Program-made: the position numbers | Shown: positions 24,001 through 30,000 of the stretch, one piece after another | How positions within the stretch are numbered: position 1 is the stretch's first letter | Layout: every line of letters starts with the position of its first letter | Virus record (IMG/VR): IMGVR_UViG_2531839666_000014 | DNA: 64,000 nt | Direction: 5' to 3' (one strand) | Origin: a virus | Taxonomy: Duplodnaviria; Heunggongvirae; Uroviricota; Caudoviricetes

Positions 24001-27000
24001 TCGGAATGCCTGCTCCAGCTTTTTCCAGTCCAGCTTTGCCATGTCACTTTCTGACGTCCTCTGTTAAAAACTGACGCATAATGACCGCTGTGATTTTTCA
24101 GAATTCACACAGCAGCGCCATACTTGATCGATATTTGTACAATGAGGTTGTTTTATCCGGTTTCTTCCACCACCGCACCGGACAGGCGGCTTCGCGGGAA
24201 ATCGCTCCCATCTCGTGAAAAATGAGAAAACCCGGTGTGCATCGTTTTTGATTACCCCCGCACACTCACGCAGATAAGGTGGCTGCGGTCTCTGTTAATG
24301 CGGGAATACGGCGACGATACGGCGCATCAGCAAAACTTAGTTCAGCACTGAGTGCGGATATAGTCCTGTGCCCCTTCCAGCTGCTTCTGCATCAGCATCA
24401 ACCGCTCTCTGAGAGTGAAATAATCCCGTTCAACTGTGTCTGCCAGTCGGGGGGCGGTTGCATTATCCACGCCGGAGGTGGTGGGGGCTTCACGCACGGT
24501 ACCGGAGCAGGTGGCGTTGATCCGCAGGAGCTTACGACCAGCGGCAACATCAGCGCGCAGAGTTTCATTTTCAGCTCTCGCATCGGCTAATTCCCTTGAG
24601 TATCTGGCATCAAGCGCAGCAACATCACGCTGGCGCTGCTGCATGTCAGTAATGGTTGCGTTTGCTAGCTCCAGCTCTCTGGCTTTTTTATCGCGCTGCG
24701 CTTTGTAGGTGATGGCGTTATCGCGGTAATGATTCAGCCCCAGACTAAGCGCACCACAGGCCACCAGCAGTACAATAATCACCACATACAGAATACGGTT
24801 CATATCACCACCAGCGAATTGCCCGGACCAGTACAGCAATTTCATTACTCATCTGTTTAAATAAAGTTCACGATTTCAGCGCAATGACCAGTTTTGCCAG
24901 CCCATACAGTATCGGAGACACAGCGATACCAACCGCCACCCACTTAATAGCAAAGCCAGCGCTCTGCTGATGTCATCAGTCACTGTTACCCCAGCATCCC
25001 CGACGAAGACAACATCATCCAGGGCAGGAAAAGAAAAATAGCAACCAGCATTAGTGAAAATGAAATGCCGACGATTACACAGAGGATCTTCGCCAGCGTT
25101 ATGAGTTTGTCTGACATAGCTACCCCTTAATTGCCACAATTAACTGGGATACCCCCCATAAAAAAGGGATGCTCCAGACCAGCAAAAACTTCCAGTTTGG
25201 TAATTGACTAATCATGAGTCGCAACTCCCTAATCAGTTTGCTAAAATCAATCAAGGCAGCCACCCATAGCTTACTGCCATAAACACAAAACCCCGCTTGC
25301 TGCCAAAAACGGGGTTTTTACTTTTATTCACTTAGGTTTTGCCAGTTCGCAGGATTTCGTGTTATCCGTCCGCGTTGACCAACGTTATTTTTCAGCAAAA
25401 TATTCTGCTACCTGTCGATACCCCAACATGCCAGCGCACTCTCCTGGTCGCGACGGGATACCTGACCGTAGCAATTATTTGAGCGGATACGGCAGTCTCT
25501 GCCACCGTCCTTAATCCACCAGCGAATCGCTTCACACGCTCCCCTGCGATCGCCTGCATTAATTCGTTTATAAAACGTCGACGGGAAACACTTACCGGGG
25601 CCAATGTTGTAAGGACAGAATGACGCGATCCCCGCTTTCTGAGGTTCGGTCAGTGGCACTCTGATGTTTTTCGCCACCCATGCCAGCACCTTATCACGTT
25701 CAATGGCGTTAACCTGGTCGCATTTTTCCTTCGACAACTTCATGCCGGGGACGACAGGCTTACCATCCACCTGGGTGGCACCACGGCAGATGGTCCAGAT
25801 ACCCGCACCATCACGGTATGCCGTGGTGTGGTTACCTTCTTTTTCGTCAAGAAACTGGTCGAGGATTTCAGGCGCAGAAGCACCTGCAGCAATCAGCGCC
25901 AGAACGACCGCTGATAAACCATAGCGGAATTTCCTGCTCATCAGCTTACTCTCCCCGCGCCGCCTTACGCCGGTCTTCTTTAATCTTGAAATACAGGTTC
26001 GTCAGATATGTCAGCAGCCCAAACAGCAGACTCCCCAGCACGCCTATTGCCGCCCACTGAGACGGGGAAACCCTGTCCAGCAACTGCAGGAACCAGTAGC
26101 CCGTTCCCACCGCTGACGTGGTGTATGACACACCTGTTGTGATTTTTTCCATCTGGTACATACCCCGTCTCCCGCAATCCGGAAGCTCACAACATGAAAA
26201 AGGCCAGCAGCCGTTTACTGATGGCCCTGACTCCTCGTTACAGCATCATGACCGATTCGGGTTGAGGTTCAGTCGCATCGGCGACCGGTGATTCAGGCTG
26301 AACTTCACCGCTCTCTGCGGTGGTATCTCCCGCTTCAGTCGGTGGCTCTGCCTGTACACCAAGCAGCTCATCCAGAATGGCATCAACTTCTGCATCAAGA
26401 CGCGCCTCAAGATTCTGGCGGAGTTTCTGTTTCAGTGCGCTCCGGACTTCTTCAGAGCGCAGGACTTCCTTCACTGCCTCTGCAGTGACCAGGGATGTGA
26501 TTTCTGACATGGGATTTTCTCGCTGAAAGGGGTTGTTAAGGAGTAACGGGCTCTTCGGGTTTGCTTCCGGCTGACTGACTGGCGCTGATTTTCTCAGCGG
26601 CCCTTTTATCAATCTGCCTGCACCAGAAATCGCGCACAGCCCTGTACCCACCCGAAAGAAGATACAGCACACAGACCGCCGTACAGAAGTACAGCATCAC
26701 CTGATGAATAAATATCATAATTTCTTACCGTTATGGTTGACAATGAGAACTGTTTTCATTTAAAAAACCAATGTACGAAAGCATCTTTTCTTTACATTCT
26801 CCATTGGGATTACCTCCGCCAGCTTCCATTCCTGCCGCTGGCGGCTTTTTTTAGCAATTATGCGGCTGCTCCAGCTTTGTTTGCTTTAACTTCCACCGTA
26901 TCAATAAGTACAGGGTAGGTTTCTGCACTACCTGTAATATCCGTAATGACAAACCTGTTGAGTCCATTAGCAGTATTGGCCCATTTCACCAGGTCAAACG

Positions 27001-30000
27001 CCTGTCCATCCACACCATCAAGCACCGGAGTAACATTAATGCTGTTACTGCCCTTAAATTTAAATGCAAGCGTATGCCAGTCATGGTCGAATGCGCCAAA
27101 CGTGCCAAGTTCTTTTTGTTGATTAACTGTATGATGGTATGCAACATCAATACTGGCTTTATCTGTCTGGACAAAGAAAGAACTCAGATAGCCTTCACCA
27201 CCCTCACCCGGCCATTCCGCTATTCGCCAGTACAAACCAAAGGCATACTTGTTTCTGGTTGTCTCAAGATTGACGTTTTCGGGGATTTTAAACCGGACAG
27301 CAATTTCCCCGCCTTTTTCCAGTAAAAGTTTTGCCTTGTCTGCAGCAATATCACAGTACATTGACCAGGATTTCGCGCTGTTATTTTTCTCAATTCGCAG
27401 AGCTTTATTGCCGCTGTCATCAACCAGTGTGCGTCTGCCATCCATACCGTCCCAGCCATAAGGTTTCAGCTGATTGTCTGAAGCTTTTTTGGCATCGTAA
27501 AAAATTACAGACTCTGAGGTGGTAACCGGTCTGTCTGGAACAACCACCCCGGCAGTACCATTAACAAACGCAGAAGACTTACCCGCGCAGCTCAGAATCG
27601 CCGTTGCCAGACGGTCGGAAATAATCCCACGGCGAGCCCATGAACTGAAATGACTGGCCCTGTCCTGAGATGTCCAGGTGCTTCTGTCCGTTCGCCATTT
27701 TGAACCGTAATACCCGATATCCGGAATATCCGGGTCTTCTTCCGGTTTGTTCGTCGGCACATTCACCCCGTTCTCATCGGTCATGAACGGCACGAAATGG
27801 ATATTCTTTTCCGTTTTATTTTTGTAACTACCATACACCGTCTGGTACGCCGTTTCGTTCTTCTGCTTCCAGAAATATGTTGTGTCTCCACAAATCCAGG
27901 GAACACTGTCAGCTGAGCCACCCACACACTGCCCCGCCATATCTGCAAGGTCCGCACGGTATTGATCCACCACTTCTGTAAAACGGGCTGCATGATTCGC
28001 TGGCGTTCCGTTAAAATCAAATTCCCCCTGCATCCATACCACGGCAAGCAGCACATTTTTCGGATTCTTCGCCAGCGCGGCTTTTGTACGACCAATGAGG
28101 TCCTTATACAGCGGCCTGCCCACCCCCCAGCGGGTGGAACTCTCTGAGGCGCCAGTAGTGTCACTGTATGTGCCATCGGTTCCGGTGGTGAAAGCTGAAC
28201 CACCACGGCAGCACGGAACAAGAAGAATGCCCGCATTCGCCGGTATAAATGGCAGAAGCTTTTTGGCGATATGCAGCCCCTGTCCCACACAGCCGTACTG
28301 ACCTTTCGATAAATCCGCTTTGGGATGATTAAGCCCTGTCATATCCTCCACATCATGGAGACAGTGATCTGCCGGGATAATATCGTTATAGATACATGCA
28401 GCACCTCCCGGTGTCACCGTACTGCGACGCGCTAACTGTTTAATACGTGGATCAGGGCTGTCGAATGTATCCGGTAATGGCAGTCCCTCACCGTATGACA
28501 TACCATTGGACTGACCAGCAAGCGCGATCACATAGTAATATTCTGGCGCAACAGAAGGCGCTGAGGTCGTCGGACGGTTGCCTGGCTCCTCTGGTGATGA
28601 GATGCTCCCCTCACTCACAACTGGCTGGATGAACTCCGCACCATAACCAGCTGTCGAAATCAGCGCACTACCATAAGGCTGCCACCCTTCCTTCAGTTTT
28701 TGAGTTATTCGTTCCGCAAGGTCTGACGGCGACGCCGCCCTGACCACGTCATAGTGTTTAAATGCCATGAATCCTCCCGGCCGGGATAATGTACTGAATA
28801 AGATAAGGAGTGAGCGGAAGTCCCGAAATACAAGGGAAAAAGACAACCACCCGCAAAAAAGAAATACACTCCTCACAGTTGCGCAGGGTGATTACTGTAA
28901 GGTATTATTCGCAGCGTTAATTAATTGTTCATATTGCTTTTCTTCTTGCCAACCGCTCTTCCCGGGGCGGCTTTTTTTGCATGTAAAAAGGCCCCTGCTA
29001 TGAGGGGCCCTGATATATGCCTAATCTCTGTATACTGCATGGTGCCGGGTGCCTCCCGGTGAGTTCGGCCTGGTGCCACCAAACCCGCGTATTCTCGCTT
29101 ACGATCATCAAAGAGATCATACCATTCACCAGTCGCCCCTCCGCACAGGGGGATTCACCATGCAGGATTTTTTTAACAAATTCGCAGCCAAGCAGACAAC
29201 CGTCAACTACCTGAATTGTGAGTGATTTAACATTTCACTGCCCAGTGTCTTCCCCTCATTAAAAAGCCCCTCCGGAGAGGGGCTGGAGAGTAGCGCTATG
29301 TACCGTTCATTGCATGGTGCCGGGTGCCTCCCGGTGAGTTCAGTATCAGCACCTGAACCCGCACAGAAAGGATAGAGGTAAAACAGAAACACCTGTGACG
29401 CTGATATGCCCCGCCGCTCAGGGGGATTCACCATGCAGAAATTTTGTAGCACATCTATTATCAGACAGGCAACAATCAACTGACTGAATTGAGATGTATT
29501 TAACATTGATAAATCTCCGCCTGTTCTCTTCACCGGGCTATTCTGAGTCAACGGAAAATAACCTCGCTGAATCCCCCTCCATTATGACAGGCATTAGTTT
29601 TAATGGTTACCGTCATCCCCGTAATTTGTGCACTGAGAAGAAGAGACTGAAGATTCCATCTGTTAGTAAATAATTCTTTATCTCCCACTTTAACTGTAAA
29701 GGTATCGTCATCATTATATTTTGTATACTCCACCTTCCCAGTTACACAATCTGGCGCAGCCAGCACACTTGCTGAAAAAAATGAAAGTGATGCAGCTATT
29801 AATAATATTTTTTTCATTTTACCCCCCTCAACTGCTAATAGCCCTGCGTATCAAAATTGCCCCCAGAGTGGATGAGTCCCACAATATTTTATTGTGCGTA
29901 ATCCCACGCACTCTTCCATCTACCGGGCACATAGAAGGAAACTCATTAGGTACAATTCTGGCAACTCGCGATGCATGATGATGACAATTCAGTATTAATG

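Follow-up and report, generated by a model that had tools for sequence, protein, structure and literature searches.

A NanS-p-type esterase gene followed by two small genes, DUF1378 and DUF826, forms a real esterase-centred linkage unit that is carried by two unrelated prophage backbones. Both forms are present in a 64,000-nucleotide stretch of IMG/VR virus record IMGVR_UViG_2531839666_000014 (hereafter the window), where copy A lies in a Shiga toxin 1 (Stx1) prophage at 26238-28768 and copy B in a Mu-like prophage at 53831-56405, each on the minus strand and in the identical order esterase, DUF1378, DUF826. Co-occurrence within this unit is asymmetric: the small genes always lie behind the esterase, and the esterase is often found without the small genes. 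Among the accessory genes that adjoin the Shiga toxin genes, those for NanS-p esterases are the most conserved, and they have been regarded as a metabolic gift to the lysogen. The cassette of copy A is already known as annotation; the variant in Mu-like prophages, the linkage structure of the unit and its one-sided co-occurrence appear to be undescribed. No paper on the Mu-like copy was found, literature searches by locus tag (L0106, Z1467 and others) gave nothing useful, and the DUF826 and DUF1378 open reading frames (ORFs) between nanS-p and S are mentioned only in passing (PMC10462455).

A preliminary description of the window had proposed this module at both sites, and all six ORFs lie where it placed them. 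Copy A comprises esterase A (26858..28768, 636 amino acids, NanS-p or phi24B gp84 type), whose ATG at 28768 is preceded by GGGAGGA, followed by DUF1378_A (26536..26718, 60 amino acids, Pfam 8e-35) and DUF826_A (26238..26510, 90 amino acids, Pfam 3e-30); the last two are the single-helix and the acidic protein (isoelectric point 4.1) that had been anticipated. Copy B comprises esterase B (54318..56405, 695 amino acids as read, Pfam SASA 2e-13 and DUF6645 8e-26), DUF1378_B (54112..54291, 59 amino acids, Pfam 9e-24) with the ribosome-binding site GAGTGAGG, and DUF826_B (53831..54076, 81 amino acids ending in Met-Met, Pfam 3e-15) with the ribosome-binding site AAGGAG. Against a Pfam gathering cut-off of 25 bits, DUF1378 (PF07125) scores 119 bits in copy A and 84 bits in copy B over the full profile of about 59 amino acids, and DUF826 (PF05696) scores 105 and 56 bits.

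Alignment of the two copies, which had been suggested as a check, gives amino-acid identities well beyond chance: 51% between the esterases (catalytic domain and all that follows it), 47% between the DUF1378 proteins and 47% over 51 amino acids in the N-terminal half of DUF826. Synonymous divergence (dS) between them exceeds 1. A recent duplication of the cassette within this genome is ruled out, because the copies share just 47-51% amino-acid identity with dS above 1; by this divergence they are old relatives. The order of the genes had been described as shared together with their spacing, and only the order holds: esterase and DUF1378 are separated by 139 nucleotides in copy A versus 26 in copy B, and DUF1378 and DUF826 by 25 versus 35. 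The first gap of copy B becomes 57 nucleotides if a 1-nucleotide deletion in esterase B is undone. This deletion, at about 54392/3 relative to strain FORC_028 and an IMG/VR copy, swaps the last 16 codons for 25 unrelated ones (the family-normal stop is 54349-54351), and could reflect a sequencing error or a genuine change in the final strand of the lectin-like domain.

Pfam finds SASA and DUF6645 in both esterases and DUF1737 in esterase A only, which bears out the earlier claim that the N-terminal domains differ. Esterase A is divided, along the minus strand, into a putative capsid-anchor domain (DUF1737, about 28598-28768, PF08410 4e-18), a NanS-like SGNH catalytic core (about 27569-28579, PDB 3pt5 5e-117) and a lectin-like jelly-roll (DUF6645, about 26879-27493, Pfam 8e-28, PDB 6yp6 4e-42). 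The core and C-terminal domain of esterase B match the same structures (3pt5 4e-110, 6yp6 2e-40). Each would be a NanS-p-type sialate O-acetylesterase in which a swappable N-terminal domain is joined to a catalytic domain of the NanS-like SGNH kind and, at the C-terminus, a lectin-like domain, and for esterase A we infer action on 9-O-acetyl sialic acid from the literature on close homologues. Chromosomal NanS (YjhS, PDB 3pt5) has a catalytic core homologous to those of esterases A and B (1e-110 to 1e-117) with the GQSN block conserved. Unlike the cassette esterases it is a core alone, within the nan regulon, and has no N-terminal anchor, lectin domain or small genes. Core-only esterase homologues that adjoin nan genes in Proteus and Edwardsiella chromosomes resemble this layout.

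The closest characterized relative of esterase A is gp84 (vb_24B_21) of phage phi24B, which with NanS-p of 933W (Z1466) and Sakai (ECs1207) has the same three-domain build and the same position between stx and the holin gene S. Identity to gp84 is 70% overall, and very unevenly spread: residues 1-120, including the SISSP linker motif, differ at one position, whereas identity is about 85-90% in the catalytic domain and only about 40% in the C-terminal domain. The same two small ORFs follow the esterase in phi24B (vb_24B_23 and vb_24B_24) and in Sp5 (ECs1210 and ECs1211). The resemblance extends to the particle. Terminase, portal, scaffold-like, major capsid, cement and other structural genes at 14853-24042 on the minus strand of the window match those of phi24B at 93-100% identity (99-100% for the capsid proteins, with 99.75% for the major capsid and 100% for the cement protein), and because of this the Stx1 prophage is classed, on its structural genes, as a Traversvirus-like short-tailed phage and not as a lambda-like siphovirus. 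Cryo-electron microscopy and proteomics of phi24B have placed gp84 as a decoration on the capsid, where its DUF1737 domain binds the face-centre hexons as a hexamer and gp84 then self-cleaves (bioRxiv 10.64898/2026.04.10.717836). Since the DUF1737 domain and the capsid proteins of the window are near-identical to those of phi24B, esterase A should by analogy decorate the capsid hexons of the Stx1 phage and then self-cleave in the same way.

Esterase B, unlike gp84, lacks DUF1737, and its place is between gin and com of a Mu-like prophage. Its first 100-105 or so amino acids (about 56091-56405, minus strand), here called the Mu-type N-terminal domain, match no Pfam family and are unrelated to those of copy A. 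An exhaustive HMMER search with the first 105 or so against 1.84 billion representatives returned five matches, all esterase fragments or noise. One of the five (P0239) is a distant esterase in which this N-domain is borne on a long Pro/Thr linker, and corresponds to the 784-amino-acid esterase of a Mu-like prophage locus (L152, 7983-12837). In this locus com is followed by a putative cytosine-methylase-like ORF, as judged from its sequence, instead of mom. The four loci of this kind (L152-L155) belong to Mu-like prophages of other hosts; in them the esterase follows a tail-fibre assembly gene and is itself followed by a DUF1353 gene, and neither DUF1378 nor DUF826 is present.

In the window, copy B has the surroundings of a Mu right end, as the placing of the second copy inside a Mu-like element had implied. 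A gin-like invertase gene (56496..57050, minus strand, annotated as "recombinase family protein" in FORC_028) lies directly upstream, and com and mom (52323..53215, minus strand) lie downstream at the right end of the prophage, giving the Mu-like order of invertible tail-fibre region, gin, com, mom and disrupted host gene. The host gene, at 51907-52305, encodes a dmsB/ynfG-like 4Fe-4S subunit and is truncated by the prophage end at about 52200. The arrangement of copy B was found in all 33 IMG/VR loci retrieved with DUF826_B and in 214 of 5,426 complete E. coli genomes, and it occupies differing chromosomal sites in strains FORC_028, STEC299, E2855 and NCCP 13983. Prophages of this type lie inside ybbA, near torY or near elf genes in other strains, which fits transposition. 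Between DUF826_B and com, an ORF on the opposite strand (53599-53841, plus) with a CxxC...CxxC pattern and no Pfam match is frameshifted in the window and in FORC_028 and intact, as a 154-amino-acid hypothetical protein, in E2855.

The linkage of the small genes to the esterase was followed through about 135 sampled loci, made up of 80 lambdoid and 33 Mu-like IMG/VR loci and 22 contexts from exact-protein look-ups. Every DUF826 gene among them with enough upstream DNA has DUF1378 and then the esterase upstream, and exceptions to the order are explained by contig ends or by esterases disrupted by insertion sequences. The same order is found in phi24B, non-Stx lambdoid phages, divergent protein clusters and Shigella, and it is kept by the most divergent blastn matches among the 1,052 pair-carrying genomes of the 5,426. 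Small genes without an esterase were not encountered in the IMG/VR loci, in those most divergent matches, in Shigella or in the divergent protein clusters. A survey of other prophages had been named as a second check, and its outcome upholds the claim of one conserved three-gene unit shared by two unrelated backbones. The small genes can be kept without close spacing to the esterase, because Sp5 has ECs1208 (296 amino acids), ECs1209 (108 amino acids) and ECs5606 between the esterase and DUF1378 (PMC5155283, Supplementary Table S1); this insert is probably an insertion sequence.

How far the unit extends was measured in 67 complete lambdoid modules by assigning allele types to each part and expressing their association as adjusted mutual information (AMI). 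The catalytic domain and the esterase C-terminal domain are the most tightly associated (0.73-0.78), followed by the C-terminal domain with DUF1378 (0.49-0.66) and with DUF826 (0.43-0.51), and by the small genes with the catalytic domain (0.25-0.43). At the edges association falls away: DUF1737 against the catalytic domain gives 0.14-0.17, and DUF826 or DUF1378 against the holin gives approximately 0 although the holin is 80 bp from DUF826, a value whose power is limited by low holin diversity. The linkage block is therefore made up of the catalytic domain, the lectin domain, DUF1378 and DUF826, and recombination boundaries lie after the N-terminal domain and between DUF826 and holin S. Comparison across backbones follows the same lines. 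Between Mu-like and lambdoid loci, amino-acid identity reaches at most 96% in the catalytic domain, 94% in the C-terminal domain, 83% in DUF1378 and 55% in DUF826, and the N-terminal domain is of Mu type in 29 of 30 Mu-like loci and is DUF1737 in all 68 lambdoid loci. One chimeric locus (L126, IMG/VR 2617270962_000007, about 5690-9860) combines a DUF1737 N-terminus and a lambdoid-like esterase with Mu-type DUF1378 and DUF826 and with mom. Its make-up suggests that two prophages of a single genome recombined at their esterase genes, an event that could rearrange the chromosome.

These observations are consistent with an esterase-centred cargo cassette of E. coli and Shigella prophages, in which DUF1378 and DUF826 would be lineage-restricted accessory genes behind the esterase. 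The esterase genes of co-resident prophages would recombine through their conserved core, and this would place the cassette on both backbones. The interior that is exchanged would then be the catalytic domain, the lectin domain and in part DUF1378, and the edges that stay with each backbone would be the N-terminal domain and DUF826.

The same exchange could also have spread genes that do nothing for the esterase. In that case DUF1378 and DUF826 would have arisen or landed behind the esterase once, would have travelled by recombination through its core, and would have a job of their own, such as binding a host inner-membrane protein to exclude other phages, or another trait of the lysogen. In favour of such hitchhiking, exchange is frequent, as the core (up to 96%) and C-terminal domain (up to 94%) identities across backbones show, and L126 is a chimera. 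The small genes are optional for esterase phages and restricted to Escherichia and Shigella, and Mu-like prophages of other enterics have the N-domain esterase without them, so that their homology-assisted capture could have taken place in E. coli. The very strong conservation of the DUF1378 transmembrane helix suggests a specific membrane partner, and deletion of the small genes in Sp5 has not been reported to have a phage-growth phenotype (PMC5155283). On the other side, none of the roughly 135 loci and the annotated genomes has the small genes minus the esterase, although remnants of the esterase alone exist (H121-H124). No PADLOC model matched the small proteins, and no promoter-like site above chance precedes their genes. 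We regard this explanation as a live but minority possibility.

The features of the small proteins themselves bear on what they could do. DUF1378 has one hydrophobic N-terminal helix, very strongly conserved, followed by a basic tail, and residues F11, C12 and the SGGY motif are invariant. DUF1378_A has no lysine or arginine before the helix and six after it. It is predicted to be a single-pass inner-membrane protein with its N-terminus out and C-terminus in, because the basic residues all lie after the helix (the positive-inside rule). In an AlphaFold2 model of DUF826_A, residues 10-17 and 20-49 form helices with a predicted local distance difference test (pLDDT) score of 82-96, and residues 57-88 score below 50; this tail is acidic, Pro/Glu-rich and disordered and ends in MML, the C-terminal Met-Met being conserved in the family. 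DUF826 would be an acidic cytoplasmic protein made up of a long helix and a disordered tail. The two proteins fall into PHROG 494 (DUF1378) and 311 (DUF826), and neither PHROG nor NCBIfam attaches a function to them. PADLOC defence models gave no match at E-values up to 1. The label "head completion protein" given to DUF826 in some phage records is not upheld, as PHROG 311 and 8301 have unknown function. Word-index searches for the small proteins returned E. coli and Shigella names only, and two DUF826 patterns gave no hit beyond Escherichia and Shigella in 185,579 species-representative genomes.

Short ORFs of no known function whose starts are often misannotated (for example as forms of 109-154 amino acids that overlap DUF1378 in another frame) could in principle be conserved non-coding or decaying sequence that has been called as DUFs. 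The substitution pattern rules this out. The median pairwise ratio of non-synonymous to synonymous substitution (dN/dS) is 0.19 for DUF1378, with 0.18-0.19 for the form in copy A, 0.15 for the N-terminal half of DUF826 and 0.34 for its tail; within Mu-like loci alone it is 0.22 for DUF1378 and 0.15 for DUF826. On each backbone both genes are under purifying selection: dN/dS is 0.15-0.26 in hundreds of pairwise comparisons, in which dS reaches about 1. The frames are intact across 47% amino-acid divergence and some 135 loci, with invariant residues, and the ribosome-binding sites of copy B are strong. Because dN/dS shows purifying selection, the small ORFs are, on this pattern, real genes, and we give the non-coding alternative almost no credence.

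In lambdoid prophages the position of the pair invites a third explanation, in which DUF1378 and DUF826 would tune the timing of lysis by a pinholin and a signal-anchor-release (SAR) endolysin, or the release of that endolysin, DUF1378 being the membrane actor and DUF826 working on a cytoplasmic tail, with the esterase as a mere neighbour. The pair lies directly upstream of an S21-type holin in every lambdoid locus, DUF1378 is small and single-pass, and all sampled pair-bearing lambdoids encode lysozymes of the SAR type. Phage Mu also lyses its host with a SAR endolysin, so that both backbones share a lysis style. Small lysis regulators such as T4 RI and RIII, the S21 antiholin and Mu releasin offer a further likeness, as the pair is likewise small, combines a membrane protein with a cytoplasmic helical partner and is near the holin in lambdoids. 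Unlike these regulators, the pair shows no homology to lysis families (none matched in Pfam, PHROG or NCBIfam) and is away from the lysis genes in Mu-like prophages. All Mu-like loci have it between gin and com/mom, where it is still under purifying selection. The types of DUF826 and DUF1378 are not associated with the holin type, within the limited power noted above, and holin and lysozyme genes 91-99% identical adjoin esterases in phages without the pair. These points argue in favour of the earlier claim that the small genes are not tied to the lysis cassette they happen to precede.

Genetic data exist for the lambdoid form. Among the in-frame deletions made in Sp5 are those of ORF44, the esterase, and of ORF47-49, which covers ECs5606, ECs1210 (59 amino acids) and ECs1211 (Mondal et al., 2016, PMC5155283); the primer for the latter ends in the MML stop of DUF826. 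The ORF47-49 mutant is not one of those whose plaque formation or lysogenization was reported to be defective or altered (PMC5155283). The lack of any reported plaque defect after induction also sets the pair apart from the known lysis regulators, and a role as lysis modulators is considered improbable. The phi24B virion proteome file, in the part available, shows the esterase as abundant and the lysozyme ORF with one count; ORFs that end at the DUF826 and DUF1378 stops are absent from that part.

The account that we favour adds two steps to the esterase-centred cassette. The Mu-type N-terminal domain would be a virion anchor suited to the Mu-like particle, on the capsid or the tail. DUF1378 and DUF826 would form a membrane-tethered pair in the producing cell, a basic tail meeting an acidic partner, and would act as a dispensable modulator of the fate of the esterase before lysis, for example whether it is held or partitioned, loaded on particles or freed. 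In keeping with dispensable accessories, the esterase-holin junction occurs without the small genes, at query coverage of at least 80%, in 1,212 of the 5,426 complete E. coli genomes, and also in E. albertii and Escherichia sp. MOD1-EC7003, and the Sp5 ORF47-49 mutant, like that of ORF44, is outside the nine essential ORFs and the changed-titre set (PMC5155283). Several points weigh against this account. The specificity of the edges is equally explained by the mechanics of recombination alone, as expected because the N-terminal domain and DUF826 sit at the edges of the cassette, and co-variation of DUF826 with DUF1737 in lambdoids does not go beyond the expectation from distance (AMI 0.10-0.27). 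The Mu-like and lambdoid occurrences are not independent trials, because the shared esterase core (up to 96%) gives homology by which neighbours can be dragged along, and the sampled loci are redundant and mainly from genomes of E. coli that make Shiga toxin (STEC). A single-sequence structure model of the Mu-type N-terminal domain reached a pLDDT of 44, too low for use. The decoration of the capsid by gp84 is the result of one preprint (bioRxiv 10.64898/2026.04.10.717836).

The claim that the small proteins are functionally tied to the esterase is consequently best divided. Its genetic side, the linkage, stands; its functional side is weakened by the frequency of esterases without the pair and by recombination as an explanation of the co-travel, and functional coupling is plausible. 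Taken as a whole, with anatomy, evolution and the modulator step together, the favoured account is somewhat better than an even prospect. The modulator step on its own, a membrane-tethered pair acting on the esterase before lysis, is a tentative proposal that we would expect to fail more readily than to hold, on a par with the hitchhiking explanation. A stronger joint claim is also conceivable, in which the N-terminal anchor is swapped to suit each particle (DUF1737 for phi24B-type capsids, the undescribed domain of about 100 amino acids for Mu-like ones) and DUF1378 and DUF826 are a membrane device that partitions the esterase among capsids, membrane and free release; this combination is unlikely.

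Two groups of known systems help to place the cassette. As with the morons of temperate phages, it is an optional, lineage-restricted insert at cargo sites (Q-S in lambdoids, gin-mom in Mu-like prophages) with a hairpin after it, terminator-like behind both copies. Unlike in morons, no promoter of its own stands out above chance, promoter-like sites before the small genes being no more frequent than in shuffled sequence, and its main product in phi24B is a virion component and not a factor of the lysogen only. Esterase tailspikes and other virion proteins that join an anchor to an enzyme are a second comparison; gp63.1 of phage G7C is an SGNH-type deacetylase tethered via a separate N-terminal adaptor. 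The esterase gene directly behind the tail-fibre assembly gene in Mu-like prophages of other enterics recalls this type. Unlike in gp63.1, to which the cassette esterases give no sequence match, the anchor in phi24B binds capsid hexons.

Copy A is encoded in the late operon between Q/stx and S, with stx1A/B upstream and holin S, a SAR-type lysozyme and Rz following downstream. Phage phiSTEC1589-Stx1c is 99.9% identical over this region, and 343 phage records match parts of it. The esterase had been described as downstream of stx1B (29548..29817, minus strand), which is correct as to position, and the two are separated by about 780 bp. This spacer holds a terminator-like hairpin at 29265-29284 and, adjoining it, a tandem duplication of about 273 bp (29036-29234 and 29311-29507, 79-100% identical in three blocks). 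GC hairpins at 26832-26844 and 28953-28970 flank esterase A, each with a run of A before it on the coding strand, and are intrinsic-terminator-like on the plus (antisense) strand only.

Directly downstream of copy A is the class II (S21-type) holin gene (25946..26161, minus strand; annotated as class II holin in related genomes), and between it and DUF826_A lies a GC-rich, terminator-like hairpin with a run of five U (26197..26228, minus strand, fold -23.8 kcal/mol). This hairpin was considered as the cassette's own terminator and rejected: it also precedes S in two phages without the small genes (L084 and L085), and because it is kept there it belongs to the S-proximal side. In copy B, an 8-bp GC hairpin with no clear U-run (53802..53821, minus strand) comes immediately after DUF826_B.

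What emerges is an enzyme body that is passed from one phage type to the other, the N-terminal domain staying specific to each. A 2026 preprint places a NanS-p enzyme on the phage capsid, and the window shows the same body on another N-terminal domain; this domain swap on a virion-displayed enzyme is the more interesting by-product of the analysis. About one in five complete E. coli genomes carries DUF1378 and DUF826, often in multiple copies, and the role of the two genes is narrowed to that of dispensable accessories of an esterase cassette as opposed to parts of a lysis cassette. Recombination of esterase genes among co-resident prophages is a route for rearrangement of prophages and chromosome in STEC. 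If the Mu-type N-terminal domain is a particle anchor, it would clearly exemplify the swapping of anchors on a mucus-active enzyme that phages display, and if the joint claim of anchor and membrane device were true, the triplet would be a self-contained module for the display of a mucus enzyme that is movable between unrelated phages.

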